From positions 7,259 to 71,258 of IMG/VR virus record IMGVR_UViG_3300032038_000061: a stretch of 64,000 nt of DNA; one strand, given 5' to 3'. Below the pieces are notes generated by a model. That model did not search any database, was not told the origin of the DNA, and worked only from the letters and a program-made list of their open reading frames with translations. How positions within the stretch are numbered: position 1 is the stretch's first letter; each line of letters opens with the position of its first letter. The position numbers and the translations under genes were made by a program. Source of the stretch: a virus (taxonomy: Duplodnaviria; Caudoviricetes). This document shows, piece by piece, positions 9,304 through 60,820 of this stretch.

Positions 9304-10539
9304 ATGATTGGAACAGGATTACAGATAGCAGTAGCTCTTGGAACAACTTTGGTCGGTGTTCTCACAGCAATTGTAGGAAGCAATAATAACAATCAACAGA
9401 ATATGGATGCTTATAATATGAATCAGTATTATCGTCCATCACAGTATGAAACACCGATAGTTCCACAGAAACCTGCATATGAACCATTCAAATATGAACC
9501 AATAACAGTAAGACGTCTTCAGGCTGAACCAATACCAAAGTATTGGGATATTCCAGTTTCAGAAGAATCAAAACACAGATGGGAGATTGGTCCAGATGAT
9601 GGTTTATCAGCATCACGTAGAAACCTTATACGTAGCAGACTTCAGAGATCAGTAGCTCCACAGCAGCCAGTTCAACCCACAATAGTTCCGTTAACACCAC
9701 CACAACCAGTTCAGCAGACAACACAGTATGGCTATGGTTATAGTGAACCATCAATACCCACACCTCAAGCTGTAAATGTTCAGCCACAGGCTCCTGTACA
9801 GGTTGATTCAAGAAGATTTTCTCACACAGTAAATCCAACTTATACAACATTTGAAATGCACAATAGACCTTTCCAGGCTCCTATGATGCAACAGGCAATA
9901 CAGAATCCTTATAATTTATATGCAAATCCAATGACAAATAATATGACACAGTATCAGTCAAGAAGACAGATGTTTGAATCTGGTAATGTAAACGGTTCTT
10001 TCCAAACACCAAACTTCAATAACAACAATATTCCTTCACCATATCCATATGGCTATGGTGAAACAAACAACATGGGTTATCCTTCTCAGAACATGAATTA
10101 TCAGCAGAATCAAATGAATTATAAGATATTCAATAATAATGCTGATGAAAGTAGGCTTAATAATTGGACGATGATGGATAGTGGTCCGGTTGGATATAAT
10201 GCATATAATAGTGGTTTCCCGGGGAGCTCAAGTCCTCCAAATCCAAATATACAAATGCATCGATTCAATCAACCTTCACCCCAACCCATGTATCAACAAC
10301 AACCAATGCCTCAACAATCACAATATGGTCAACAATTGGACCAACCTATGGGAGATATACTAAAATGGAAAGACCTAGTAGATTCTCCCGTCTCGACAAA
10401 GTTCTCAACGTCACAAAAGCCATCGTCAACGGACTCAATGCAATATCAAGGATCGTGGCATAAACCGGGATATGTCAATGAACTTGGAGAAGTACCGATG
10501 TTTGTGTTAGATGATGGAACCCCTTTATTTAGTAAATAA
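9304..10539 (+). CDS. Q/P/N/Y/M-rich low-complexity (prion-like) protein with an N-terminal hydrophobic helix
   Basis: N-terminus MIGTGLQIAVALGTTLVGVLTAIVGS; the rest is dominated by Q,P,N,S,Y,G,M; contains ASRR, DSRR, QSRR and YGYG; AAGGAG SD. Confidence 0.8.
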   Translation: MIGTGLQIAVALGTTLVGVLTAIVGSNNNNQQNMDAYNMNQYYRPSQYETPIVPQKPAYEPFKYEPITVRRLQAEPIPKYWDIPVSEESKHRWEIGPDDGLSASRRNLIRSRLQRSVAPQQPVQPTIVPLTPPQPVQQTTQYGYGYSEPSIPTPQAVNVQPQAPVQVDSRRFSHTVNPTYTTFEMHNRPFQAPMMQQAIQNPYNLYANPMTNNMTQYQSRRQMFESGNVNGSFQTPNFNNNNIPSPYPYGYGETNNMGYPSQNMNYQQNQMNYKIFNNNADESRLNNWTMMDSGPVGYNAYNSGFPGSSSPPNPNIQMHRFNQPSPQPMYQQQPMPQQSQYGQQLDQPMGDILKWKDLVDSPVSTKFSTSQKPSSTDSMQYQGSWHKPGYVNELGEVPMFVLDDGTPLFSK

Positions 10540-10661: not shown

Positions 10662-11180
10662 ATGAGTTTAACGAAACAACAAATGGACGCCATCTTTGAT
10701 GGTGCGGATGTAGCCCTTACAGCAACATCAGCAACTGCAAATGCAGTAAACAACGGAATCCAAGAGGTCAGAAGAGCCATGGATTCAAGAGGAAATGTGT
10801 CAAACTATCCTCAACAGAATTATCCGTACAACAACGGTTATCAGTATCAGCCACCTGTGACATATGGTTATGGTTATGCCGATCCAACCCCACAGCCTCA
10901 GCCAATGATGTACAACTACAACTACAATTATCAGCCTCAGTTGTATTCTCAGCCACAGGCATATGGTTATGGTGGATACCAACAGCAACAGCAGTATCCA
11001 AACACATATTACCCAACAATGTCACAGGGTAATGGTTATCAACAACCATTGGTTCCACAATCAACAATGGGTTATCAAGGATTTACCAACACAGGTTATG
11101 GTGTTGCTTCAACACCTCAAACAACCTATGGTTTCAATGGTAAACCAAATGGACCTGTTGGAAGTTCTTGGGGATATTAA
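10662..11180 (+). CDS. Q/Y/G/P/N-rich prion-like protein (172 aa)
   Basis: AAAGGAGG SD; after about residue 45 almost all Q,Y,G,P,N,T,S; DSRG and repeated GYG. Confidence 0.85.
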   Translation: MSLTKQQMDAIFDGADVALTATSATANAVNNGIQEVRRAMDSRGNVSNYPQQNYPYNNGYQYQPPVTYGYGYADPTPQPQPMMYNYNYNYQPQLYSQPQAYGYGGYQQQQQYPNTYYPTMSQGNGYQQPLVPQSTMGYQGFTNTGYGVASTPQTTYGFNGKPNGPVGSSWGY

Positions 11181-13389: not shown

Positions 13390-13402
13390 GCGAGGTTTTG
13401 TT

Positions 13403-14083
13403 ATGTTTGGATTAAAGTTGATAAAACGTGACGAAGAAGATGCCAAAGAAGTACGTGTTTTCAAAAAAGCTGTGCATAATCTACATGATCATTGTACAGA
13501 TCTTATCAAATGGATAATAGATGGATTTAATGTTGATCCTGATTCAATTCTTCATTTGATATCAGATATGGAAGTAATGGGAACATTAATTGACATATAC
13601 TTCAATAACAAATTTTCGTCACCAACAAATTCAATGAGATTGTTTCAAACACATGATGAATGTCGTAAATATGTAAACGAAATCGTTGAGATTATTAATG
13701 GTATTATTACCGCGAATGAACTGGTTAGAACAGCTTATGAACATAGAGAAGATGGATCAATAGACATTGATCAAATTAACGATGAATATGAAAAACTTAT
13801 TGATTCTGCTAAAGATGATTTGAATCGTAGCGTTAACTTATTGATCGCTGAAATTAAACTGATCATTGCTGTTATTAGACCAGATTTAGTTCGTATTGAT
13901 ACAGGAGAAAATCTTATAGAGACTTATTATCGTAATAAAGCTTTGAAAGATAATAGCGATAAGATGCATACTATGTTTAAGGTTGAATATAAGGTACAAC
14001 CTGATGAATATAGAAGATATCTCAACAAAGAGAAAACCAAGGAGGAAAAGAAAAATGATCAACGAAGAAAAAATGGAAATTGA
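13403..14083 (+). CDS. Hypothetical alpha-helical protein (226 aa) overlapping the chaperonin start
   Basis: ORF track; GAGG SD. Confidence 0.75.
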   Translation: MFGLKLIKRDEEDAKEVRVFKKAVHNLHDHCTDLIKWIIDGFNVDPDSILHLISDMEVMGTLIDIYFNNKFSSPTNSMRLFQTHDECRKYVNEIVEIINGIITANELVRTAYEHREDGSIDIDQINDEYEKLIDSAKDDLNRSVNLLIAEIKLIIAVIRPDLVRIDTGENLIETYYRNKALKDNSDKMHTMFKVEYKVQPDEYRRYLNKEKTKEEKKNDQRRKNGN

Positions 14084-15803
14084 GATGGCATCAATGGGAT
14101 ATGGAAGAGTGTATGATTATACACAATACTCCCATGACAATCACGTCAATGTGATTCCTGAACAATCTTTCAGAAGACTTGTTCATGATACATTTAACGT
14201 GATAACAGAAACCCTCAGAGAAACTTATGGACCATATGGTTCAACTGTTATGATATCTGATCAGAATCAGACAATAACAACCAAAGATGGATACAATGTG
14301 TTTGAATCAATTGGTTTCAATCAAGTTTACAAACAGAAAGTTTATCTGGCAATACAACAGATAATCGAACGTGTCAACAGAAATGTTGGTGATGGAACAA
14401 CTTCTTGTATATTATTGGCAGAGAAGATTTTCAATAATGTCAATCAGTTGATGACAACACCAGAAGTGAAACGACAGATATTGAAAGAGCTGTCTGAAAT
14501 AGAGTCAGATTTACAGGATTCAAGTATACTTGAACTCCATAAAGAAACTAAGATTATCATGACAGATATAACGAAAACTGCGTTGATGAATCTCATACGT
14601 CTTGCAAGTAACTATGACGATGAACTTGTTAATGTATTATATGAAGCATTTTCTCCTGAATATGATAATGAGGGATTCATTGTATCAGTCCGTAATGTAG
14701 TTGCAGAAAGAGAAATCACAATGGATTCAAATTCCAATGTTCAATACAAAATCGATTATCTTCCCGGTGATTATCGAGTTCGTGTAAACATGGATGTTGA
14801 ATTCGGATTAGCTCTGTCACAACCTACAAAGATAAAGACAATAATATACGATCATGCATTCTCTTCATCAGATTGGATAAATTTCATGAAGAGTTATGAT
14901 GGTGAAAATGTTTTGATACTTGCGAGAACCTTCACAAAGAGTTTCATGGATAATGAATATGTGAGATTCTTGAAAGAGTATATGTTGAAGAAACTTCCTG
15001 TTCCACTTTATCTTGCTGAAATCAAAGGAGAATTTGTACAGAATGAGATTCATGACCTTGCAGCATTACTTGGAATCAAAGCACGTGACATGAATGATTT
15101 GGTTGTTAATTTTGATGAATTACCAATAACAACAGTTCAAGTATATAAAGGAAACTGCATGTGTTTCTATGATGTAACATCACCGACTGGATATGTTGAT
15201 AAACTTCGTAAGGAAATGAATAAAGATTTATCTGGATCATATATTACTCGTAAGGAATACCTCTCCAGAATTAAAGCTCTTTCATTGACTAATAAGGATA
15301 CACTTGTTACTGCAAAATGTGGTACTTCATTAGAATCCAAAATGATAATGGATAAGATAGATGATTGTACCGCTATTGTAAATTCTGCAATTGAAAATGG
15401 AATTGTTCCAAATATGTTAGTATATGCATATTTCAGAATGGAATGTATTCGAACTGCGGATGATTCATCAGAACTAATGAAATCAATCGTAACAGAAATC
15501 CAACATGCAATAACTGGATTATTCTCTGATTTATGGGATTCTAAATATGGTAAGGATTGTAAAGATGGAATGGATGATGAAATCGAAAGAATATATGATT
15601 TCAACACATATTTCAAATCATATGATTTGATTCATAACGAATTAACCAATGTTGAGGATCTTCCCACTTCTTCTGAATATGATCTTGAAGTTGTTGTTGC
15701 AGCTTTGTCAATCGTCAAATATTTATTGACCAGCAGAGCATTCATCTTTGATGCTCATCTATTACCACCAATCGGTGATGTTGGTCATTATGAACATTAT
15801 TGA
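14055..15803 (+). CDS. groEL: Phage GroEL-like (group I) chaperonin
   Basis: TYGPYGS, ITTKDG, VGDGTTS, DKIDDC..SAIENGIVP motifs; GGAGG at 14041 supports the start at 14055. Confidence 0.9.
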   Translation: MINEEKMEIEMASMGYGRVYDYTQYSHDNHVNVIPEQSFRRLVHDTFNVITETLRETYGPYGSTVMISDQNQTITTKDGYNVFESIGFNQVYKQKVYLAIQQIIERVNRNVGDGTTSCILLAEKIFNNVNQLMTTPEVKRQILKELSEIESDLQDSSILELHKETKIIMTDITKTALMNLIRLASNYDDELVNVLYEAFSPEYDNEGFIVSVRNVVAEREITMDSNSNVQYKIDYLPGDYRVRVNMDVEFGLALSQPTKIKTIIYDHAFSSSDWINFMKSYDGENVLILARTFTKSFMDNEYVRFLKEYMLKKLPVPLYLAEIKGEFVQNEIHDLAALLGIKARDMNDLVVNFDELPITTVQVYKGNCMCFYDVTSPTGYVDKLRKEMNKDLSGSYITRKEYLSRIKALSLTNKDTLVTAKCGTSLESKMIMDKIDDCTAIVNSAIENGIVPNMLVYAYFRMECIRTADDSSELMKSIVTEIQHAITGLFSDLWDSKYGKDCKDGMDDEIERIYDFNTYFKSYDLIHNELTNVEDLPTSSEYDLEVVVAALSIVKYLLTSRAFIFDAHLLPPIGDVGHYEHY

Positions 15804-15814
15804 TATTATCATTG

Positions 15815-15836
15815 GAGAGGGCCAATTGGCCCTCTC
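15815..15836 (+). terminator. Perfect palindrome GAGAGGGCCAATTGGCCCTCTC
   Basis: After the chaperonin stop. Confidence 0.65.
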
Positions 15837-15902
15837 TCACATAAACAATTTTCATCCAACAACAAATAAGTACGATTATAAAATTACGAAAGGTGATGGA
15901 CG

Positions 15903-17405
15903 ATGAAAACACTGAGAAACAATATCTATCAGGATATTGCAAGTATTTTATGTTCAAAAAACAATGAGTTGAAAACAACACAGAACGTTGTATTATTCTC
16001 ACGAACCATATCGACATATCCATCTAATAAATCAATATATTGTCTTGTCGCTAATAGGGTAATTTCATTCATTGAAAAGAATGTAATGAATATGAATCTT
16101 ATGATAGAGATTATGAAAGATGAAGGTGAGGATGAAGAAATCGTTCAGACTGTTGAATTCTTAATGAATAATCCTACAATAAAAACTCGTGCTGAATGTA
16201 CGAAATTGTGTTTGCTGTTGACGGATTATGTAAAATGGTCAAAACTCTTAAAAGTCAAAAACTCATTCATCAAAGCATTAGATGTCATTGATGAAGATGA
16301 AGATGACGTTACAAGCATGAGGGATAAGATTAATACCTTATACAAAATATCAACCGAAATAGTTACTGCATATAATACTGTCAACATTACAGAGATATCT
16401 CACACATTTGACTCAAATGATGTTGATGCAATGAAAACTGTTATTGCAGAAGCTAAAGATGCAAGAGCTCCTGATAAATGTATCATTACTGGTATTCGAG
16501 GTTTGAACAGCTTACTATCACCTGGATATCTTTCAGGATGTGTTTATGTATTTGCTGCATTACCTGGAAATTACAAATCAGGCATTTTGTTAAAATCACA
16601 TGTTGATACATGTAAATTTAATGAACACATCAAGAATACTACAAATGGGAAAACACCAATATCGATGTATATATCGATGGAGAATTCAATGGCACAAACA
16701 ATTCGCAGACTATGGAGCTTATTATTCCCTACTGCGGATTTATCCATGTTCAGTGTTGACGAAATAACCGAAATGATCAATAATGAATTGACTTCCAAAG
16801 GATTACGTTCAATTCTTCTGTATTATGGATATAGAGAAAAATCTACTAAGGATTTGGAAAATATCATTCGTTCATTTAATGATGAAGAAAATGAAGTTGT
16901 TGCAGTATATTTGGATTACATTAAACGAATCCGTCCCGGTCGTACTGATGCAGCGGTTACTTCTTCAGAAAAAGCAGAATTACATGCAATAATGAATGAA
17001 TTGAAATTGATATCAGTAGAATTCAATATTCCTGTTGTGACGGGTCATCAATTAAACAGAGAAGCCGCACGTCAAGTTGATGACATTGTCAAAAATGGAG
17101 GTTTCAATAAAACTGAACAAGCTCTTGGAAGAGCCAATATTTCCTCTGCATGGGAAGTTATGGAAGTTGCTGACTTTTTAGCATTAATGAATATTGAAAA
17201 TAATGGTGAAACAAAATCATTGATGATTAAAGCAGCTAAACAAAGAGATTTGGATAGTAAGACTGATAGTGCCATTACAGCAATACGTCACCCATTCTTA
17301 TCAACACAATCATTTGCGTTGAAAGATGATATAATGGAAAATGTATCTGTGTCAATACCGATATATTTTACGACACAACACACAAACTTCATGGCAAATA
17401 TATAA
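15903..17405 (+). CDS. dnaB: DnaB-like replicative helicase
   Basis: Walker A variant ALPGNYKS, YISMEN, VYLDYIKRI, PVVTGHQLNR, EVADF. Confidence 0.85.
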   Translation: MKTLRNNIYQDIASILCSKNNELKTTQNVVLFSRTISTYPSNKSIYCLVANRVISFIEKNVMNMNLMIEIMKDEGEDEEIVQTVEFLMNNPTIKTRAECTKLCLLLTDYVKWSKLLKVKNSFIKALDVIDEDEDDVTSMRDKINTLYKISTEIVTAYNTVNITEISHTFDSNDVDAMKTVIAEAKDARAPDKCIITGIRGLNSLLSPGYLSGCVYVFAALPGNYKSGILLKSHVDTCKFNEHIKNTTNGKTPISMYISMENSMAQTIRRLWSLLFPTADLSMFSVDEITEMINNELTSKGLRSILLYYGYREKSTKDLENIIRSFNDEENEVVAVYLDYIKRIRPGRTDAAVTSSEKAELHAIMNELKLISVEFNIPVVTGHQLNREAARQVDDIVKNGGFNKTEQALGRANISSAWEVMEVADFLALMNIENNGETKSLMIKAAKQRDLDSKTDSAITAIRHPFLSTQSFALKDDIMENVSVSIPIYFTTQHTNFMANI

Positions 17406-17419
17406 AAAATATATTTGAG

Positions 17420-17431
17420 ACATATATAATT
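17420..17431 (+). promoter_or_regulatory. Candidate phage promoter motif ACATATATAATT
   Basis: Identical 12-mer at 29304 and 50244, each upstream of a + strand operon and followed by a short hairpin. Confidence 0.5.
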
Positions 17432-17493
17432 AATATGAGAATGGTACAACTTTGTACTTTTCTAAATTTGATTGCTCAAAGGAGGAAAATAAT

Positions 17494-18132
17494 ATGAGCA
17501 GTGTTTTATTAACACAATATCAATCAAGGATACTTGGACCAACTGAACCGGTTGATTACTCGTCACTGGTTATGCAGTCCTATCCACCACAGGCTATTCA
17601 GCAGGAACCTTTCATAGGTTTCAAGGTACTCGTTACCGATATGATGGCTTACTCCGCAGGAAATCCTGGAGACAGAATGAGATATCTTGAAGCTAATTTA
17701 GGATTTCTCAGAGGTAAAGGTGTCATCATCAGAGAGACATCATTGACGAAACCCGATGGATACTGGATACTGACATTACCAGTACCAAGGTCTCAACTGA
17801 CAACGGCATTGAATAATCTTCTTGATGTTTTGGCAACAATCGAACAATACTTCAGTATTATCCGAGATGGGTTGTTTGAAGTAAACGTTTCAGGAAGATG
17901 TCATTATGCAGAAACCGAAAGAGTGTTGTCATCACTCACAATTCCTCAGAGATATATGCAACTTCTTGTATCACCTGACAATACACCGTACAAGATGGGA
18001 CATGTACAGCGTATCAATGACACCTTCATGGTACTTCGTACACGTTGGAACTTGAGGAATTCAATAACACCCGCGTCAATATTTGAAGACTTAACTGTCA
18101 TTGCACAGTTAACAGCTTCGATATATCACTAA
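17494..18132 (+). CDS. Hypothetical protein (212 aa)
   Basis: AAAGGAGG SD supports ATG 17494. Confidence 0.8.
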   Translation: MSSVLLTQYQSRILGPTEPVDYSSLVMQSYPPQAIQQEPFIGFKVLVTDMMAYSAGNPGDRMRYLEANLGFLRGKGVIIRETSLTKPDGYWILTLPVPRSQLTTALNNLLDVLATIEQYFSIIRDGLFEVNVSGRCHYAETERVLSSLTIPQRYMQLLVSPDNTPYKMGHVQRINDTFMVLRTRWNLRNSITPASIFEDLTVIAQLTASIYH

Positions 18133-18155
18133 TTAATTTTAAGGAGGACGATTAT

Positions 18156-18908
18156 ATGTATAATCCAGATTACCCAAACACAGAAAATGCTGGTTTCATC
18201 CAGCATACCTATCAGGCACAACAGCAGAACAATGACATGTTCTATGTAAATGGACAGGCTGTTTACAACCCATTTGCTCCAACAGGATATCAGAGTGATT
18301 CCAGAAGAGCAATCAACCCCGTAAATCCTTACGGGGTTTATCCTAATCCGAATCAGCCAATGAACGGATACAATCCACAGAATCAGGCAATACCTGAATC
18401 ACAGGTACAGCCGTTCTCATCATACCCGCCATCGACACCACTTGGAAATGTTCCTAATATGGGTGGATTAAATTCACTGGTGGACTCCAGAAGAAACTTC
18501 GACAATACACTTCCACAGAACAATCCCTGGATAACACAGAATCCCGCTCCAACATATACACAGCCTCAGAATAACTTTAACAACAATGGATATGGTGGAA
18601 ACTTTAACAACGGATATCCATCAACTTTTGGAAATGTTGAATCTAATACTCTTGCATTGTATTCTTCAGGAAGTATGGGTTACAATCGCAAGGTTGGTGC
18701 TTGGGATAATTGTTATGTTCAGAACAGAGCAATTCCAATGCCTGTAATTGATTGGAGACAACAGCAGCAGAATCAGCAGAATCAGCAGAATCAGCAGGTT
18801 TATTCATATCAACCGAATATGCAGCCTCAGTTCCCACCACAGTATCAGAATACTCAGGCTAACTGGGCTGAAATAGCTGTAAAGAATTGGAGTTCGAACA
18901 AACTCTGA
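18156..18908 (+). CDS. Q/N/P/Y-rich prion-like protein (250 aa)
   Basis: AAGGAGG SD; low complexity throughout; two DSRR motifs; QQN tandem repeat. Confidence 0.85.
   Translation: MYNPDYPNTENAGFIQHTYQAQQQNNDMFYVNGQAVYNPFAPTGYQSDSRRAINPVNPYGVYPNPNQPMNGYNPQNQAIPESQVQPFSSYPPSTPLGNVPNMGGLNSLVDSRRNFDNTLPQNNPWITQNPAPTYTQPQNNFNNNGYGGNFNNGYPSTFGNVESNTLALYSSGSMGYNRKVGAWDNCYVQNRAIPMPVIDWRQQQQNQQNQQNQQVYSYQPNMQPQFPPQYQNTQANWAEIAVKNWSSNKL
18765..18797 (+). repeat. 9-bp tandem repeat (CAGCAGAAT)x3 + CAGCAG, encoding QQN repeats
   Basis: Read directly from the sequence. Confidence 0.9.
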
Positions 18909-18924
18909 TAAACAAAAAAGGAAT

Positions 18925-19770
18925 GTGGTATTTATGGCAGAATTATTCGAGAAACAATTTAGATCTCGATTGAATTCATTACCTTTGGATTTCAAATGCG
19001 AACTCGGTGAAATACCTCTTCAAAAAGGTATGAGAGCAACATCTCGAAAGAATAAGGCAATCGAATTATTGAACAAATACTCGATTCCATTCATTGAATT
19101 AGGAACTGGAACAAACCGTTTCATTATAAGATATCAAGGTTATGCTCTCAAAATCGCTCTTGATAGAGAGGGAATAGCCGATAACAAACAGGAGTTTGCA
19201 ATATGTGAAGCGTTAATGCCAAATGTTGCATATGCCCATGAGATAAGCAGTGGAGGTCACCTTCTGGTGGCCTCTTATGCTCCTGCTTTTACATCTTACA
19301 ACGAAATGTGTTTTCATGCGACAGAAATAAAACGTATATTAGGTGAATGGAGTCAACGTTTTCTACTAGGTGATGTTGGTTTAACTCGAACTAACTATGC
19401 TAACTGGGGTTTATCACCCAATGGGAAACCGGTTTGCATTGATTATGCTTATATCTTTCCTGCGGGATTAGATTTGTTCAAATGTATATGTGGTAATAAG
19501 ACAATGACTTTTACTGATTATACATTCTCTACTTACAAATGTACTAAATGTGGTAAACATTATGAGGATAGAGAATTAAGAGCAAAAATATCTCAATCAG
19601 AAAGATTAAGATTGTTCAACAATGTTAAAGGTATCGAAATGCATAATGAATATGAAATGCATCCTGTCGATCCAAAATATATTAAACCAGAAACTAATCC
19701 AGATTATCCAGACCCATATACAACATCGATAAATGTTGCTGAACAACTCATGGGTATTGATTTCGGATGA
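18925..19770 (+). CDS. Protein-kinase-fold enzyme with a C-terminal Zn ribbon
   Basis: Gly loop ELGTGTNR, YALKIA (catalytic Lys), NKQEF (alphaC Glu), LGDVGLTRTNYAN (catalytic D...N), CIDYAY (DFG-like); CICG...CTKCG. Confidence 0.75.
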   Translation: MVFMAELFEKQFRSRLNSLPLDFKCELGEIPLQKGMRATSRKNKAIELLNKYSIPFIELGTGTNRFIIRYQGYALKIALDREGIADNKQEFAICEALMPNVAYAHEISSGGHLLVASYAPAFTSYNEMCFHATEIKRILGEWSQRFLLGDVGLTRTNYANWGLSPNGKPVCIDYAYIFPAGLDLFKCICGNKTMTFTDYTFSTYKCTKCGKHYEDRELRAKISQSERLRLFNNVKGIEMHNEYEMHPVDPKYIKPETNPDYPDPYTTSINVAEQLMGIDFG

Positions 19771-19803
19771 GTTTCTATTAAATAGATAAGGAGTTGATTC
19801 ACA

Positions 19804-20229
19804 ATGAAATATTGGAATCTTGTACGTTCATCAAAGAAAGAAACTATGACAACACAACAGACTTATTATCTTGACGATAATGACGTTGACTATGTCATGG
19901 ACAGATTGTTGACATTTCAAAACAAATACTTCTCGGAGATTCCTATTACGGATTCTCCGTATAAATCATTCATCTATAATATTCCTCGCGACATAATTGA
20001 CGCGAGTGATTATTATAGTAATCTCGGCACTCCTGATTGTTTAGACCCATTATTCTGGTTCTATATCTTGACAACTGGACCAGACCTCAAAGATTCAATG
20101 AGTAAATGGGTAACACTCGTAAGTGACTATATTAATGATACACTTACAGACCGTGATATCGATGACATCTCAGACATGTCTAATAGATATGACGGAACAT
20201 ATCTTGACAATAATGATGACGACGATTGA
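19804..20229 (+). CDS. Acidic hypothetical protein (141 aa)
   Basis: AAGGAG SD; Asp-rich C-terminus. Confidence 0.75.
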   Translation: MKYWNLVRSSKKETMTTQQTYYLDDNDVDYVMDRLLTFQNKYFSEIPITDSPYKSFIYNIPRDIIDASDYYSNLGTPDCLDPLFWFYILTTGPDLKDSMSKWVTLVSDYINDTLTDRDIDDISDMSNRYDGTYLDNNDDDD

Positions 20230-20245
20230 TGTAATTTAAATAATT

Positions 20246-20265
20246 GGACGGGGATATCCCCGTCC
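20246..20265 (+). terminator. Perfect palindrome GGACGGGGATATCCCCGTCC
   Basis: After the 20229 stop. Confidence 0.7.
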
Positions 20266-20433
20266 GATAAAAACATTTTTTAATATATATATTATTTTAA
20301 TGCATATACGAGAAAGAAATAATAAGAAAGGAGTAATTTATGATTTGTTAAAAACATCTTACTCGTATAATTGCAAATCACGCAGTCGGTTTATAACGTC
20401 GACAGACGTAAAAATGTAGAAAGGAAAATTATT

Positions 20434-21045
20434 ATGAGAATTAAAATGTCAACAATCAAGAACGCCATTAATCACAAGAAAACCCCTGAAGATTTCAAGG
20501 AACTTCTTCATTCATACGCAGGCAATGATACAGAAAAACTTGGAAAAACAATTATTTTCTGTATTAACGACGACTCATCAAGATATTTACAACATGAATT
20601 ACAACTTCTTGATGAAATGATTGACTTTAATGATGTTGAATTCATCGAATTCAGACGATTCAACAATAATGATGCATATGTCAGGAGAATCAATGAATTT
20701 GCTGACAGTCATTCGTATAAACAATGTGCTAATGTCGCTGGTTACTCTATCGTTTTCCACAGAAATAGAAATAAGACGATAAACTTCCATCTCGAAGTTG
20801 ATGCATCGGATGCGAAGCTTAAAAGACTCGCTATAGGGATTCATCAACTTTTCCTTGGCAATGTTGATTACATCGAAAATAATCTATTCCTTAATTGCAA
20901 CGATGATATTACAGTTCTATGTGATGCTGTTAACGCTAAAAACAAACTGAAAGCTTTAATGCTTTTCAGAAAAGCTTTCTGGGATATCACCAGTGAGGAA
21001 ATTGACAAAATTATTGACAACATGAAAACAGACGAAAACAAATAA
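20434..21045 (+). CDS. Hypothetical protein (203 aa) with a long structured leader
   Basis: GAAAGGA SD before ATG 20434; the TTG at 20371 lacks an SD. Confidence 0.75.
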   Translation: MRIKMSTIKNAINHKKTPEDFKELLHSYAGNDTEKLGKTIIFCINDDSSRYLQHELQLLDEMIDFNDVEFIEFRRFNNNDAYVRRINEFADSHSYKQCANVAGYSIVFHRNRNKTINFHLEVDASDAKLKRLAIGIHQLFLGNVDYIENNLFLNCNDDITVLCDAVNAKNKLKALMLFRKAFWDITSEEIDKIIDNMKTDENK

Positions 21046-21124
21046 TCAAAACCACGTTAAAAAGAGGGATTGAAATATATCCCTCTTCAAAATAAATTTA
21101 AATAACTTTCAGGAGGAAATTAAA

Positions 21125-22072
21125 ATGAAAGACATTAGAAAATTTAACAATGAAGGCAACACAACAGCAGCAGGTTACGATATTGGAGTAACAGGTACAG
21201 CTCAGACTTTCGATACTGGTGCGGTAAGAAACACAAAAGGAGGAAAAGGTATATTCGGCGATTTCATCAAAGCATTCACCAACAGATTCAAAACAATCAG
21301 AAATGATTACATTGAAGCAAATCACAGTGAATTTGATATCGCTGCAGAAATCCCGATATCAACATCAAGCATCATGGATGCGATTGTTGATGGTGATTAT
21401 ATCATGGCTATCATCAGAATTGCAACGCTTCGTTATTGCCATGAATCACATGCGGTGCCATTCGAATGGGTAGGTTCATCAACGCTTCTTGAAGAATCCG
21501 ATATCCTTAAAATAACAAACGAAACATTTGCAGCACTTGTGATACATTACCAGAAGATTGTTGAAATATGCGGTATTGATAATTGGAAGGAAGGAATTCC
21601 GACATCGAGTTTCATTCCTTCAGCAATGGTACACTTCATTCAATACGTGAGTGGAATGACTGATGAGGATCATTCAATTGCTGCAATATGGAATCTTGTA
21701 GGGGCATTCTGGAATGAAGACCAGACACTTCTTGAAAAGATTGAAACAACAAACACTACAAACACTGAAAAGCCAGAAACTGAAGAAGATGAAGAAGATT
21801 TTAACTTCACGATTCCCGGTAAAACATGGGAAACACTAGCAAGGCTTTCAGCTTCGATTAATGAAGAAAAAAGACAAGCACAGGCTCCAGCGGAAGAAGA
21901 CAAGACACTTACTGACATAATTACAAGAATCAACGATATTGAGAATTTCATCATCGACAGAGTTAATGAAACTCAGAACGAAAAATCCAAGGATGAAGTT
22001 CTGAGTTATGTTGAGCTTTGTGTTGAAGCATTTGAACAAGAGCTCATTGAAATATTCAATGGAGAAGTTTAA
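21125..22072 (+). CDS. dATP/dGTP diphosphohydrolase-like (DUF5664-type) domain protein, divergent, with an acidic C-terminal extension
   Basis: TFDTGAVRNTKGGKG and NWKEGIP.S...SAMVH....SG.TDEDHSIAAIWN motifs, separated by an insertion. Confidence 0.6.
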   Translation: MKDIRKFNNEGNTTAAGYDIGVTGTAQTFDTGAVRNTKGGKGIFGDFIKAFTNRFKTIRNDYIEANHSEFDIAAEIPISTSSIMDAIVDGDYIMAIIRIATLRYCHESHAVPFEWVGSSTLLEESDILKITNETFAALVIHYQKIVEICGIDNWKEGIPTSSFIPSAMVHFIQYVSGMTDEDHSIAAIWNLVGAFWNEDQTLLEKIETTNTTNTEKPETEEDEEDFNFTIPGKTWETLARLSASINEEKRQAQAPAEEDKTLTDIITRINDIENFIIDRVNETQNEKSKDEVLSYVELCVEAFEQELIEIFNGEV

Positions 22073-22087
22073 TCAATGAATAATATG

Positions 22088-22110
22088 ATGGCGGGGATTA
22101 TCCCCGCCAT
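22088..22110 (+). terminator. Hairpin ATGGCGGGGATTATCCCCGCCAT, identical to 32822-32844
   Basis: Exact 23-nt duplicate; T-rich tail. Confidence 0.8.
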
Positions 22111-22162
22111 TATTTATTATTTTTTATAAATACATCATTAATATGATGAAAGGAGTGGTGTT

Positions 22163-23059: not shown

Positions 23060-23087
23060 AATAATGCGGGTTTAAACCCGCATTATT
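23060..23087 (+). terminator. Perfect 28-bp palindrome AATAATGCGGGTTTAAACCCGCATTATT plus T-tract
   Basis: Read directly from the sequence. Confidence 0.75.
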
Positions 23088-30119: not shown

Positions 30120-31196
30120 ATGAATAACATGATTATTGGTGTTGGAAACACCGGAACACAAATCGTAAAACTTGCGGCAACTTCTAAGCTTCTCGAGGAT
30201 GTCAAAATGTATGCAATTGATTCAGTTGCTGCATCTGTTGATATCGACATGATTAATAGAATCACTGTTATACCAATCATCAGTGACTCTAAGAATGGTT
30301 CAGGTCGTTCAAGAGAAAGAGGAGCTGCAATGTATGAGTTTCATGAGGATAATGGCGAATTCGTTGATATGTATGATGACGCTGTTAACTCAAAAGCTCC
30401 TGTACTCGTTATAACATCTGCCGCAGGTGGTACAGGAAGTGGTTCAGTTGTTCCACTTTGTAAATCCCTTATAGCAGAGAACGTTCAGGTTATTCCTATA
30501 ATAATCTGCCCTAATGAAGCTGATCCCGAAGCTTTTCATCTCAACACAAATGACTTGTTCATTGAACTTGATGAGATTGGAATAACAACCTACGCAGTAT
30601 TCCAGAATACCAGAAGATATTCTGATTACGCATTAATCAATCAGGATGTTGTTAACATGATTGAAATCGTGTTTGGTAGAAGATATGATGAAACTGAACT
30701 CGATACAATTGATGATTCTGATTTGGATGTAATACTCAATACACCCGGTAGATTCATTGCAGTTTCTGCAGAAGCAAAGGATGCACAGACTCTTTCAAAA
30801 GAACTTGCAAGAAAGGTATTCTCAGGATATCAACCTGCATGGACAGATGAAGAGGCTTCTAACAATACACTTCTTCTTGCATGTGGTCTCAAAAGCATCT
30901 TTGCTAAAGATGATTTCGACGCCGTGTTTGAAGAAATTGATAAGAGACTTGATGCTGGAAATATGTATGATAAATACAAGAACATTGTTAACGATAATAA
31001 TGATGGAAAATCTTCAGCAACTCTTATTGTCGCAGGTCTCCCCAGAGCTGCTGTCAAAGTCATCAGCTCTGAATACAAGGAAGCTGAAAGTCTTGGTTCT
31101 GGATTGAATAAATCCAAACGTCCAAGTTTTATGAATCGTAAAAAGAAAACGATTACAGATGATAATGGCAAACCCAAATTCAATTGGCAGAAATAA
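30120..31196 (+). CDS. phuZ: Tubulin/FtsZ-family GTPase (PhuZ/TubZ-like)
   Basis: IIGVGNTG, GSGRSRERG, SAAGGTGSGS (tubulin signature variant), IDDSDL T7 loop, basic disordered C-terminal tail. Confidence 0.85.
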   Translation: MNNMIIGVGNTGTQIVKLAATSKLLEDVKMYAIDSVAASVDIDMINRITVIPIISDSKNGSGRSRERGAAMYEFHEDNGEFVDMYDDAVNSKAPVLVITSAAGGTGSGSVVPLCKSLIAENVQVIPIIICPNEADPEAFHLNTNDLFIELDEIGITTYAVFQNTRRYSDYALINQDVVNMIEIVFGRRYDETELDTIDDSDLDVILNTPGRFIAVSAEAKDAQTLSKELARKVFSGYQPAWTDEEASNNTLLLACGLKSIFAKDDFDAVFEEIDKRLDAGNMYDKYKNIVNDNNDGKSSATLIVAGLPRAAVKVISSEYKEAESLGSGLNKSKRPSFMNRKKKTITDDNGKPKFNWQK

Positions 31197-44739: not shown

Positions 44740-46983
44740 TTATTCGTATTGTTTGAGTTGTTGTAATATTGGTAACAACTCCGAGAACATTTGAAACAGT
44801 CTGTCTATATCCCCATCAGTCAGACCTTCAAATGTATTAGTTTGTTTCATTTGCGTAAAGAAGTCTATCATGTCGATAACCTGTCCACATTTGAATTCTT
44901 GATATTGTAGATAATACGAATGCATTATCAGACAATATCTGAGATCGGGTATCGAGATATTTATCTTTACATTGTTTATCATGACTTCAAATAATTCGTC
45001 TTCATTACCAATTGTCGAGTAACCAAAGATGTCGGGTTTGAGTTTAGCACCCATAAATTTTAAGATATTCTTGAGATTAGAAAGTTGTGGGAATTGGTTG
45101 TATTTAGACGTATCTATACCAATACCATTTAACTGACTCATCAGCACAGAATTATCTTCATATTGTGAACCTCTATAGTATGTCGAAATCTTCGCAAAAG
45201 CCTTTACACCAACACCTGCAAGGAAGTTGTAAGTGTCATATTCTCCATATTTAACAGGGTTGTCGGAATAAGGGATAAGGTTCTTATTATATCTACGGGT
45301 CTTAACAGGTAAATCATAAAGAGTTGTACGACCTGTAGCAACTCCTGATAATGCCTTTGATGGTTCTTGTTTCAATACCCATGTATATTGATAACCTACC
45401 GGATATTCACCGTCAACAGGTACCCAACGATGACGAAGTTTCGTGTATATCTTATAGGGTTTCATTATGTCTCCCCATTTTTTATAACACTCTAACAGAG
45501 CATCACGAACACATACTTCGTTAAGAGGCATTATCTGGATATAGAATCCATTCTTCAACAAATCCGCATATGTTGATTCTGAATCCTCTCGATATAATCT
45601 CTTTAATTCAGAACCCTGTGAAGGATTAAATGTTCCTATGAATTCTGATGCTAAATCGATTATATACTCACGTGGTTGATTTTCTTTGTCAAGTTGGATT
45701 ATATGTTGATGCATACGTTCCATCATAAATGTCATAGAAGATTCGTATGTTGCAAATGCAATGATTCTATTTACGATAGCCAACGCATTACAAACCATAT
45801 CAATCGGTCTACCATCATCAGTCTTTGGCATGAGTTGCCATGGAATAATTTGTGCAATAACTGACTTATTACCATATCTACCAACCACTTTCTGTCCAAC
45901 ATGAATGTCCTTTGGTTGTAATATAGTAAACTTAATTATTGTATCTACAATATCTTCTTTAGTAACCCAAGTAGAATTATTGAGATACTTTTCAGCTTGG
46001 TGATAGATATCAAGTAATGTTGTATCATCCTGATTTGGGTCAGATACGATTGTTGAAATAAATGAATATATCTCAGAATACCAATCTCGGATTTGGTTGA
46101 GATAATAGTTAAGTTGATCATTCTCAATATCGACGTTTGTATAGATATCCATATCGACAACCATGCCATGTGAACAGTAGTTTGTGTCATTAATATGAGG
46201 AATAGATGCTTCAGCTACTGATGATACTACACTATTCTCACGGATAGCACATAATACATCATTCTGAATTTCTTCTCCAATATTAGGAAAGGCTTTGTAA
46301 ACAGTGTCATTACCGTACTTATTCAACAGATAAGAATCTGATTTGATGTTGACAGTGACAATATCAACCATATCATATTTCAATGCTTCAGCAGCTCGGT
46401 CAGATATGACAAGGGCATCCTCAGTCAGTTCAGGAAGCACGGTATATACGAATCTGATATTACGTCCAGCACAATAGTTGTCATTAACATAAGATGATGA
46501 TTGAGCAATAGTAGTTCCCTTAGGTAAGATATCACCGTCATTATATTTACCAGCGATATTATTATACATTCGGAAACCATATTTCTCAACAAGGTTGTGT
46601 GCAGGTTCTACGACTTCACATATATACTTACCCGTACGCATATTGCGGAAGATATATGCAACAGGAGATATATTCGAGTCTTTGAACTTACGGAAGGTTT
46701 TGATGAGTTGATAGTCATCTTTTGCCTTTATATTCCAAGAGGATCTATCACCAAAGTTATTCTCAGCTCCAGTATACACCCTTGGGAATTCGGGGTCTGT
46801 TAATACGACACGTTGTGATGTGTGACGTGTTGCCATAACACCACGAACTGTCGATATTTTGTCAGGAAATGCCATTGCAGAAGCACCAAACATTGACATT
46901 GGTGTTACTTCTTGACATCTCTTCTCGATGTCCGAGACGTTGTTCATTGTGGAATGTTTACGTATTCTTTTAGACTGTTCCAT
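44740..46983 (-). CDS. rpoB: Phage multisubunit RNA polymerase beta subunit, C-terminal half
   Basis: ELTEDALVIS, VGQKVVGRYGNKSVI, MPKTDDGRPIDMVCNALAIVNR, VLKQEPSK, PVKYGEYD. Confidence 0.9.
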   Translation of the reverse strand: MEQSKRIRKHSTMNNVSDIEKRCQEVTPMSMFGASAMAFPDKISTVRGVMATRHTSQRVVLTDPEFPRVYTGAENNFGDRSSWNIKAKDDYQLIKTFRKFKDSNISPVAYIFRNMRTGKYICEVVEPAHNLVEKYGFRMYNNIAGKYNDGDILPKGTTIAQSSSYVNDNYCAGRNIRFVYTVLPELTEDALVISDRAAEALKYDMVDIVTVNIKSDSYLLNKYGNDTVYKAFPNIGEEIQNDVLCAIRENSVVSSVAEASIPHINDTNYCSHGMVVDMDIYTNVDIENDQLNYYLNQIRDWYSEIYSFISTIVSDPNQDDTTLLDIYHQAEKYLNNSTWVTKEDIVDTIIKFTILQPKDIHVGQKVVGRYGNKSVIAQIIPWQLMPKTDDGRPIDMVCNALAIVNRIIAFATYESSMTFMMERMHQHIIQLDKENQPREYIIDLASEFIGTFNPSQGSELKRLYREDSESTYADLLKNGFYIQIMPLNEVCVRDALLECYKKWGDIMKPYKIYTKLRHRWVPVDGEYPVGYQYTWVLKQEPSKALSGVATGRTTLYDLPVKTRRYNKNLIPYSDNPVKYGEYDTYNFLAGVGVKAFAKISTYYRGSQYEDNSVLMSQLNGIGIDTSKYNQFPQLSNLKNILKFMGAKLKPDIFGYSTIGNEDELFEVMINNVKINISIPDLRYCLIMHSYYLQYQEFKCGQVIDMIDFFTQMKQTNTFEGLTDGDIDRLFQMFSELLPILQQLKQYE

Positions 46984-59308: not shown

Positions 59309-60820
59309 TTAAGATTCTTTTTGTTTAGTAAGAGCATATAATCCATTAAGACATTCTATTTTAACCTCATATACAGTATCACAACTTGGTTTGATATTGT
59401 ATATCTTAGAATACATTAATTCTTCCGCACGTTTATTAGCCTCATCAGACCATATACCAATACTCTTTACGGTATCACCATCATAGTCACCACCAATAGC
59501 AACGAGTCTACTGTTTGAAGGAGTAATTACATCAACAAATGATGTTGAAACACGTCCATGTGGTAAATCAGGATCTATGTTTGGATAAGTATTATAGGTT
59601 TCTCCATTGAATTCAATCTTAACAGTATCGACAGTTGATAATATATGTACTTTTGTAAAGAAAGCACCTAAGTAAGTACCAATAGGATATCGAACAGTAT
59701 AAACCATTCTATCAGATCTTATGATGGCATCATAGCAGCATAAATAAATTGCATCAGTTAATGTCAATGGACGTGTCTTAGTTTCATTCTTTGTTAAATC
59801 CAAATATTCCATCATAATAGGAAGGGTGTTTTCTGGGTCAAGATATAGTTTTCTAAAACGAGAACCTGGGTTATTTAGAAATATATCAATTAAATCTTCA
59901 ATCATTTTATTATCATAAATATTCGAAATATTATTTGATTTAACTTCACTTGGATTATTATGAATATTTTGAATATTTGAAAATGATAAGAATTGTTGCA
60001 TGTAATACTTGACAAATGGTTTGAACATTGCAACACAAGAGATCAATGGATATCCTGTACGATAGATTCCTATATTGGGAGTATCTGTGTTATAACGTGG
60101 GGCTGATATAACGTTTCTTACAGTAAACATAGTTGTTTTTGCAAGTAGATGTTTTTGAAAGAACCCATTCTTTGAACCAACATAATCATGAATGTAAGTA
60201 TATATATTCATAACAGCATCTTGGAATTTTGCATAAACCTGATAAACATTTGATGTTGTATGAGCTGTTACACTCTTCAATCCTAAGATATGCATATACA
60301 AGGAATTCAATTCATTCTTAACCTGTTTACCATTTCTAACACCAACAGGACGGAATTCAGGTGGTAATACTAATACTTTATCATTGAATATTAATCTCTT
60401 TGGAGATTTAGTTAAGATATCTATATTCTGTGATGTACGAGTATTGAGAGTCTTCCTTATATCAATCTGCTCCCATATATCATATAAGTCTTTTAAACCA
60501 CAATACTTACCTTCTTTATCAGCAACCAGGACACCATCAACAATATTACATTTAGTCTCTCCATAAGCCATCTTACGTATAATACCGCCTGAACGTGAAA
60601 TTATTGTTTTCGCAACATCAGGATTGAAAACATGTACAGGTAGTTTTATATAACCACATCTGTATTTTCTTTCTTCAGTTGTCTGACCAAATATCTCTTC
60701 AGAAAAAAGACCTTGTGAATTAAACAAGTTTTGTGCTCTGTAGATCTGTTGAGATGTTACTTCTTTCAAATCGTTTGTTTTTATAAAACGATCAATATCA
60801 AATAATTCAATAACTTTCAT
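59309..60820 (-). CDS. rpoC: Phage multisubunit RNA polymerase beta' subunit, N-terminal part with the catalytic motif
   Basis: GLFSEEIFG, VLPPEFRP, KNGFFQKHLLAKTTMFTVRNVIS, VRYP, GGDYDGD (NADFDGD equivalent). Confidence 0.9.
   Translation of the reverse strand: MKVIELFDIDRFIKTNDLKEVTSQQIYRAQNLFNSQGLFSEEIFGQTTEERKYRCGYIKLPVHVFNPDVAKTIISRSGGIIRKMAYGETKCNIVDGVLVADKEGKYCGLKDLYDIWEQIDIRKTLNTRTSQNIDILTKSPKRLIFNDKVLVLPPEFRPVGVRNGKQVKNELNSLYMHILGLKSVTAHTTSNVYQVYAKFQDAVMNIYTYIHDYVGSKNGFFQKHLLAKTTMFTVRNVISAPRYNTDTPNIGIYRTGYPLISCVAMFKPFVKYYMQQFLSFSNIQNIHNNPSEVKSNNISNIYDNKMIEDLIDIFLNNPGSRFRKLYLDPENTLPIMMEYLDLTKNETKTRPLTLTDAIYLCCYDAIIRSDRMVYTVRYPIGTYLGAFFTKVHILSTVDTVKIEFNGETYNTYPNIDPDLPHGRVSTSFVDVITPSNSRLVAIGGDYDGDTVKSIGIWSDEANKRAEELMYSKIYNIKPSCDTVYEVKIECLNGLYALTKQKES

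Follow-up and report, generated by a model that had tools for sequence, protein, structure and literature searches.

What does a phage use a protein-kinase-like enzyme reduced to its catalytic minimum for, and is the low-complexity protein encoded directly upstream of it among its targets? These questions are raised by a 64,000-nucleotide window of viral DNA (the whole stretch that was analysed, positions 7,259 to 71,258 of IMG/VR record IMGVR_UViG_3300032038_000061), in which a putative kinase gene (18925..19770) follows a gene (18156..18908) for a protein rich in glutamine (Q), asparagine (N), proline (P) and tyrosine (Y), here called LC. The original prediction, made from the letters of the DNA, was that the kinase may phosphorylate the Ser of SRR motifs in prion-like proteins and so regulate their assembly. 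We favour, with a probability of roughly 0.6, the reading that the gene encodes a minimal, active ATP-dependent phosphotransferase of the protein-kinase-like superfamily whose targets are set by accessory parts (zinc ribbon, C-tail and partner proteins), LC being the best candidate for such a partner in the clade of the window.

A putative minimal kinase with a zinc ribbon

The gene and the elements recognised in its product are as follows.

18925..19770, + strand: kinase gene, 281 amino acids (aa), putative minimal protein-kinase-like enzyme with a zinc ribbon (open reading frame (ORF), 308 homologues, AlphaFold model)
19102..19119, + strand: glycine-rich loop GTGTNR (G60-R65), between model strands 57-61 and 65-70
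19150..19152, + strand: Lys76 of A74-L-K76 on strand 73-78, equivalent of the ATP-binding Lys (K72 of PKA), invariant in the alignments
19192..19194, + strand: Glu90 in predicted helix 81-97, equivalent of the alpha-C Glu, invariant in the alignments
19372..19404, + strand: lengthened catalytic loop D150-VGLTRT-N157-YA-N160, with D150 and N160 invariant and N157 present in 46/47 kinases
19441..19452, + strand: D173-Y-A-Y, with the predicted metal-binding Asp (DFG equivalent), after model strand 169-171 (alignments, model)
19483..19551, + strand: predicted C4 zinc ribbon C187-I-C189...C206-T-K-C209 (conservation, weak family matches, model hairpins 194-214)

The kinase motif set and the CxC...CxxC pairs of the original prediction are thus all in place, and they are strongly conserved. 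Motif residues are invariant or nearly so in two kinase alignments, A1 (26 close homologues) and A3 (31 homologues down to 25% identity). G60, G62, N64 and R65 of the glycine-rich loop are invariant in the alignments, and together with K76, E90, D150, N157, N160, D173, C187, C206 and C209 they make up the invariant set of A3; the residues kept down to 25% identity are exactly the catalytic and zinc-binding ones. The same residues are found in the 47 kinases from the loci that we fetched, which represent two clades, save for an Asn157-to-Thr change in locus L003 and one Cys189-to-Leu change. Judged from these alignments, the conservation is far beyond chance and its pattern is that of an active enzyme, not of a pseudokinase. 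We infer that the protein is, in all likelihood, an active phosphotransferase.

The catalytic loop had been described as D-x6-N, and an Asn does occupy that place (N157), but the canonical-like Asn, directly before the next strand, is N160, which gives D-x9-N; both spacings, D150-x9-N160 and x6 to N157, are conserved across the family. Four residues separating the catalytic Asp from the Asn are a signature of kinase families (Kannan et al. 2007, PMC1821047), and the loop of the window kinase is five residues longer than is typical. The longer spacing is a deviation inside the protein-kinase-like superfamily and no ground for exclusion from it.

The start of the gene can be read in two ways. 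The ORF begins with GTG, with an alternative ATG at 18934, and the public gene call, at 278 aa, presupposes the ATG. The spacer between the stop codon of the upstream gene (18906-18908) and the kinase start, originally given as 16 nucleotides (nt), has that length with the GTG but is 25 nt with the ATG. No terminator-like site or hairpin was found between the two genes.

An AlphaFold2 model built with the alignment of 26 homologues (predicted local distance difference test, pLDDT, 85.7; predicted template-modelling score, pTM, 0.79) shows the canonical order of elements: a strand, GTGTNR and a second strand, the Lys76 strand, the Glu90 helix, two strands, helices, and a strand leading to Asp150. 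These are followed by the loop, which ends in Asn160 just before the next strand, and by a strand and then Asp173. An extra helix (38-51) precedes the N-lobe sheet. After Asp173 come the zinc-ribbon hairpins, a pair of short helices and a tail modelled with less confidence, and there are no helices F to I. The ribbon consists of two conserved Cys pairs (CxC...CxxC) on beta hairpins, for which metal binding is predicted, and in the model it occupies the place that the activation segment and C-lobe have in ordinary kinases.

Structure comparison with Foldseek and with VIA (an exhaustive structure aligner independent of Foldseek) identified a bilobal protein-kinase-like fold in the model, and only folds of this kind were matched, as had been proposed. 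All listed Foldseek matches in the PDB are kinases, the top one being PRPK/Bud32 (6wqx_D, E-value (E) 8e-5) and the next Rio2; Aurora A, JAK2, ROCK and COQ8A are also among them, and the E-values of the Rio and Bud32 matches run from 8e-5 to 3e-4. VIA placed ULK4 first (Z 9.5, root-mean-square deviation 3.2, 132 residues aligned), then Rio2 (8.9), APH(2'') (8.6 and 7.8), Rio1 (8.5), Bud32 (8.2) and Ark1 (7.6), with its kinase matches spanning model residues 12-214 at Z 9.5-7.3; ULK4 and APH(2''), the latter at 8.6, lie within one unit of Rio2 and Rio1. In BFVD, the best matches are longer uncharacterised metagenomic proteins labelled 'Myoviridae sp.' (E 7.5e-14), followed by small proteins annotated as phage protein kinases. 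Each of the six catalytic residues listed by Kannan et al. 2007 (PMC1821047; G52, K72, E91, D166, N171 and D184 of PKA) has a counterpart, placed with the model: G60/G62, K76, E90, D150, N160 (and N157) and D173. By fold and by catalytic residues, the modelled protein qualifies as a member of the protein-kinase-like superfamily, the residues being placed by the order of the elements in the model.

Sequence comparison revealed little of this relationship. No Pfam family, including Phage_T7_kinase, matched the window kinase at E<=0.1, and none of the sequence models for RIO1 (Pfam), Bud32/PRPK, Pkinase, Phage_T7_kinase or APH/choline kinase matched it. Searches of the PDB by sequence or by profile found no known family. 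The sole sequence-family match is phrog_4301, annotated as unknown function, which covers kinase residues 53-176 (E 5e-9); weak zinc-ribbon matches from Pfam and NCBIfam occur in family members.

The closest architectures seem to be those of the RIO kinases (Rio1 and Rio2; 1zp9, 1tqi, 6fdm) and of Bud32/PRPK (4ww5, 6wqx). They appear to share with the model a minimal fold, a reduced C-lobe, the lack of an activation loop and the extra helix before the N-lobe sheet, and they are its best or near-best structural matches (VIA Z 8.2-8.9). The window kinase differs from them in having no Pfam match, in its GTGTNR glycine loop and in an Asp-Asn spacing of 9 instead of 4. It also differs in being phage-encoded, in the predicted C4 zinc ribbon after the metal-binding Asp, and in the lack of a link to ribosome maturation or KEOPS; library scans of 39 window ORFs gave no match to the Kae1 or Cgi121 families. 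From eukaryotic-type kinases it is set apart by the ribbon (187-209) directly after the DFG equivalent in the model and by the missing Pkinase match.

The family is large. Besides the 308 close homologues, an exhaustive profile search (E<=1e-3) found 1,239 representatives at 50% identity, many of which are the N-terminal domain of 800-1,200-aa proteins with an acidic remainder. Homologues occur chiefly on contigs of ~250-290 kb from uncultured jumbo phages, and all fetched viral loci and all named structural neighbours are from phages. A tblastn search of 50,697 phage records with the window kinase and a long-form relative found nothing significant even at E<=5, and our literature searches found no paper on this family. 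It has no curated name and was found here only on phage contigs.

Taken as a mechanism, the N-lobe (GTGTNR, Lys76, Glu90) and the short core (Asp150, Asn157/Asn160, Asp173) would carry out ATP-dependent phosphotransfer, the C4 zinc ribbon would stand in place of the activation segment and the substrate-binding C-lobe, and the ribbon, the C-tail and partner proteins would set the choice of target. The substrate is probably a protein. The design is unusual in that the core is at the catalytic minimum, the catalytic loop is lengthened and a zinc ribbon appears to replace the substrate-binding lobe.

Candidate partners and a shared motif

The candidate partner in the window clade and the motif that it has in common with the kinase are located as follows.

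18156..18908, + strand: LC, Q/N/P/Y-rich low-complexity protein, 250 aa, directly upstream of the kinase (composition, 45 homologues, conserved short motifs)
18162..18176, + strand: NPDYP at the LC N-terminus (residues 3-7), with N3, P4, D5 and P7 invariant in alignment A2
19696..19710, + strand: NPDYP in the kinase C-terminal tail (residues 258-262), with P259, D260 and P262 invariant in A1

LC is Q/N-rich and charge-poor, as prion-like proteins are (Q+N 0.30; QNPGYS 0.62), and might self-assemble. Its N-terminus carries the same pentapeptide as the tail of the kinase. Across the window ORFs, NPD.P was observed 3 times against 0.16 expected, and in whole genomes of the window clade the motif occurs in 3-6 copies only, with LC and the kinase always among them. 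The form [N/D]PDxP is present in 43/45 LC orthologues and in 93/117 kinase homologues (any xPDxP in 108/117), and in L010, L011, L015 and L016 DPD replaces NPD in both proteins. The three intermediate relatives L134-L136 lack the motif in the kinase, and their LC N-termini are degenerate (NPDCG, DPDYF and DPDRF). It is absent from all 29 sister-clade kinases, which have no Q/N-rich neighbour.

Proteins that have a short motif in common usually bind at one and the same site. The pattern therefore suggests a common docking site for the LC N-terminus and the kinase C-tail, which could be on the kinase itself, reached by the tail in cis and by LC in trans, or on a third protein. In the window clade, LC would be the best candidate partner by virtue of this motif, though we hold it less likely than not that it is a physical partner or substrate of the kinase. 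A more elaborate version, which seems to us decidedly unlikely, is that LC and the minimal kinase work as a module of their own, in which the LC N-terminus docks in trans at the cis site of the kinase tail and the kinase then controls the assembly of phage-built low-complexity material (for example a condensate or the coat of a replication compartment). The proposed cis/trans docking can be likened to the PIF-pocket logic of AGC kinases. Should LC turn out to be a partner, it would offer an uncommon example of a phage-encoded low-complexity protein with an enzyme dedicated to it.

A Q/N-rich or related gene lies directly upstream of the kinase in 17/17 viral loci, whose kinases are 45-73% identical to that of the window, and in 3/3 intermediate relatives (20/20 in total). 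In window-clade loci, the whole block of chaperonin, DnaB-like helicase, up2, LC, kinase, dn1 and dn3 is collinear, and the adjacency of LC and kinase is therefore weak evidence.

Sister clades keep the kinase with a different accessory protein. We compared 29 sister-clade loci, whose kinases are 38-67% identical to the kinase P0172, itself 39% identical to that of the window. None of these loci has a Q/N-rich neighbour, and no upstream gene exceeds 0.36 in Q+N+P+G+Y+S. Instead, an acidic protein (19-27% D+E) is either fused to the kinase or encoded directly after it. Searching five complete sister-clade genomes with a profile of A2 gave no match; this blank is weak, as the positive control matched only 3/5 genomes of the window clade, and we therefore turned to a scan of composition. 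In two complete sister genomes (289 and 275 kb) it showed no ORF that is low-complexity over the whole protein in the manner of LC, where the yardstick was the maximum over any 100-aa segment (0.71 for LC, background <=0.49). The kinase is thus kept without a Q/N-rich protein in the sister clades, and the core function of the family does not require one. The accessory part in these clades would be the long acidic protein, whether fused or encoded by the adjoining gene. The different attachments of the clades, acidic proteins that are fused or split in one and a Q/N-rich protein with the kinase-tail motif in the other, make the family a natural system for studying how minimal kinases acquire targets.

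Sister-clade loci (L025-L056, e.g. L033:4980-7717 and L052:4824-7822) include fused forms of 878-1,003 aa and split acidic partners that are 420-685 aa long. The two forms are homologous over their whole length and make up a fusion/fission series, which ties the kinase to an acidic partner.

Weighing the alternatives

Several points weigh against a partner-directed protein kinase. Rio and Bud32, which are among the nearest structural matches, are themselves largely ATPases, and the modelled fold does not separate a protein kinase from an aminoglycoside or RNA kinase, APH(2'') and Ark1 being close to Rio in the comparison. Among 31 members of the family, no Pfam kinase family matched at E<=0.05, and no NCBIfam kinase model matched family members, which gave only a weak zinc-binding match. 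A pentapeptide shared between two proteins of these sizes has a chance of roughly 0.02 before conservation is considered, and the presence or absence of the motif by clade may reflect a single evolutionary event. Because the catalytic loop is longer than in the families of PMC1821047, the geometry of the active site rests on the model.

The proposed switch on SRR motifs involves the following features.

18300..18308, + strand: first SRR motif of LC (S49-R51; orthologue alignment)
18486..18494, + strand: second SRR motif of LC (S111-R113; orthologue alignment)
9304..10539, + strand: second low-complexity protein; hydrophobic helix at the N-terminus, SRR three times (nt 9613, 9808 and 9958)
10662..11180, + strand: third low-complexity protein, without SRR, SRG only

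According to this proposal, the kinase phosphorylates the Ser of (D)SRR in the Q/N-rich proteins and thereby switches the assembly of condensates. Its strengths are the position of the kinase directly downstream of an SRR-bearing protein in the 20 window-clade relatives and the over-representation of SRR, which occurs twice in LC (shuffle P ~1e-5) and three times in the second protein (matched by 0/100,000 shuffles). SRR had been reported in three low-complexity proteins, but only two carry it, and the third tells against the switch. Among 61 distinct LC orthologues, the first site reads SRR in 57, ARR in 2, VRR in 1 and SAR in 1 (TRR and other 0), and the second reads SRR in 50, TRR in 4, ARR in 4 and another sequence in 3 (VRR and SAR 0). 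Ser or Thr thus stands at the motif in 57 and 54 orthologues respectively, and the four Ser-to-Thr changes fit a phospho-acceptor. There are exceptions: in L006, L007 and L009 both sites read ARR or VRR, with no Ser or Thr, L008 has ARR at one, L014 lacks both motifs, and L013 and L018 lack the second, yet the kinases of these loci keep all catalytic residues. Since the Ser changes while Arg-Arg is better kept, the conserved core is a small residue followed by Arg-Arg. This loss of Ser next to apparently intact kinases weakens the idea of a phospho-switch, for which the adjacency of the genes counts little given the collinear block. The co-occurrence of kinase and low-complexity genes in relatives, the lack of which had been named as a refutation of the original prediction, holds in the window clade but fails in the 29 sister-clade loci and the two complete sister genomes, which keep the kinase without such a protein. 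The phospho-switch is weakly supported; we consider it very improbable that the kinase controls condensates through these motifs, and a regulatory phospho-site at the SRR Ser is just as doubtful. A reading of SRR as a Tat signal was dropped, as the motifs are internal and repeated and have no hydrophobic stretch after them.

To our knowledge, very few kinases of phages have been studied. By analogy with T7 gp0.7 (T7K), the enzyme might serve host takeover or anti-defence, phosphorylating host (and phage) proteins in large numbers early in infection under the direction of the zinc ribbon or the acidic partner. T7K is a promiscuous, phage-specific enzyme that takes its direction from an accessory domain (PMC13645617): the DNA-binding domain at its C-terminus steers its activity, and it was recently shown to disarm the defences of bacteria through mass phosphorylation (PMC13645617). 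T7K and its phage homologues resemble the window kinase in having a phage-specific kinase fold, a divergent DFG-like motif and an accessory module that could direct the enzyme (PMC13645617). A role of this kind would fit the retention of the catalytic set whatever the neighbour, which points to a target common to all these phages, such as host proteins; it would also fit the annotated phage protein kinases among the BFVD neighbours and the place of the gene among replication-type rather than virion genes. It is nevertheless pure analogy, as Phage_T7_kinase does not match, T7K has DPV where the window kinase has IDY, and T7K carries a shut-off/DNA-binding domain in place of the zinc ribbon. The T7 kinase family came up as a language-model neighbour (score 0.88), which counts only as a lead. 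The T7 kinase is the closest functional precedent, with no homology or sequence relationship detected. This role also leaves unexplained the motif common to the kinase and LC. We regard it as possible but on balance unlikely. Annotated kinases of cultured phages, some of them jumbo phages (Ralstonia RP12, Xylella Cota, Klebsiella RaK2, Sphingobium Lacusarx and Aeromonas PS1), have similarly compact kinase-like folds (~130-210 aa, structural E ~1e-5) and differ in that the tblastn search of phage records with the window kinase found nothing significant.

The enzyme could alternatively not be a protein kinase at all but a small-molecule or nucleic-acid kinase (APH- or Ark1-like), or a Rio/Bud32-like ATPase switch that drives a conformational step in a complex. 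A small-molecule kinase fold had been named as one outcome that would overturn the original prediction; the modelled fold is kinase-like but does not decide between a protein kinase and a small-molecule or RNA kinase. APH(2'') (4dbx, 3tdv; Z 8.6 and 7.8) and Ark1, an RNA kinase (Z 7.6), share the kinase-like core and score near the best protein-kinase matches, and Rio and Bud32, like the window kinase as modelled, appear to lack an activation loop and a substrate-binding lobe. The zinc ribbon could bind nucleic acid, and among the products of neighbouring genes are a DnaB-like helicase and a protein that has a dATP/dGTP diphosphohydrolase-like domain. However, the helical substrate-binding subdomain of the APH/ChoK kind is absent from the model, the APH and ChoK Pfam models do not match, and the top Foldseek matches are all protein kinases or Rio/Bud32. 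We judge a non-protein kinase or an ATPase switch to be unlikely, and prefer a protein kinase with partner-set targets.

The phage and the surrounding genes

Genes of the window outside the kinase block that bear on the identity of the phage are listed first, followed by those next to the kinase.

44740-46983 and 59309-60820, - strand: pieces of a phiKZ-type multisubunit RNA polymerase beta subunit
30120-31196, + strand: PhuZ-type tubulin
13983-15803, + strand: GroEL-like chaperonin (library scans)
15903-17405, + strand: divergent DnaB-like helicase (library scans)
17452..18132, + strand: up2, 226 aa, no family match, in the collinear block (present in 17/17 loci)
19804..20229, + strand: dn1, 141 aa, helical domain and acidic tail, next to the kinase (downstream in 15/17 loci; alignment A5; model)

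The record behind the window is a 71 kb viral record judged 26% complete. The window also encodes a large terminase, an SbcC-like protein and a topoisomerase II. The phiKZ-type RNA polymerase pieces, PhuZ and these other genes, together with the homologues on large contigs, identify the source as an uncultured phiKZ-like jumbo phage. Near-identical DNA in sequencing runs labelled bovine gut metagenome, from several studies, indicates that it comes from the cattle gut. In comparative work on jumbo phages, the combination of a phiKZ-type RNA polymerase, PhuZ and a chaperonin has been linked to nucleus-forming phages (PMC7824862).

The kinase lies in a run of closely spaced genes on the + strand (~13400-22100), the same neighbourhood that holds the protein with the diphosphohydrolase-like domain; past dn1 the run goes on with more genes of unknown function. 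Immediately downstream of the kinase, the dn1 product was modelled with a pLDDT of 82.3, and its length varies strongly across related loci (141-440 aa). Its fold had no Foldseek match at E<=0.001, and the best VIA match (Z 4.0) indicates no solved structure like it. We considered whether dn1 corresponds to the acidic C-terminal extension of the long-form kinases and found no support for this: an hmmsearch with a dn1 profile found nothing and hhalign of A5 against A4 gave a probability of 0.3; the two are alike in composition only.

The LC gene is matched exactly by contigs from two metatranscriptome libraries, which belong to different studies (18127-18277, 18190-18415 and 18579-18836). One of them starts within the 23-nt spacer 5' of the LC start codon. 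None falls on the genes adjoining LC, so these contigs are uninformative on kinase expression; they do not give a level, and carry-over of DNA is possible. Within LC, a CAG/CAA-rich stretch (18764-18798), which encodes QQQQNQQNQQNQQ, draws short pieces of many unrelated metagenome contigs. It is a simple-repeat hotspot, with length variants of 3 and 9 nt in one DNA run.

In seven relatives (L003, L004, L005, L008, L010, L013 and L017), an insert of ~1 kb splits the DnaB-like helicase gene after roughly residue 416. In L003 (1995-4431), the insert contains an ORF with an HNH-like motif, followed by the last ~80 helicase codons. As far as its sequence can tell, the insert looks like an intron or another mobile insertion. 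The gene in the window (15903-17405) is uninterrupted.

Perfect G+C-rich palindromic hairpins occur in the intergenic gaps at 20246-20265, 22085-22113 and 23060-23087. The latter two were flagged as terminator-like on both strands, and the first on the - strand only. The hairpins probably bound transcription units around the kinase block.

In the sister-clade locus L019 (36-1790 and 11273-12133), a gene for a polyphosphate-kinase C-terminal/PLD-like protein is followed 2.7 kb downstream by the long-form kinase, which in turn lies 3.8 kb upstream of a prohead-protease-like gene.

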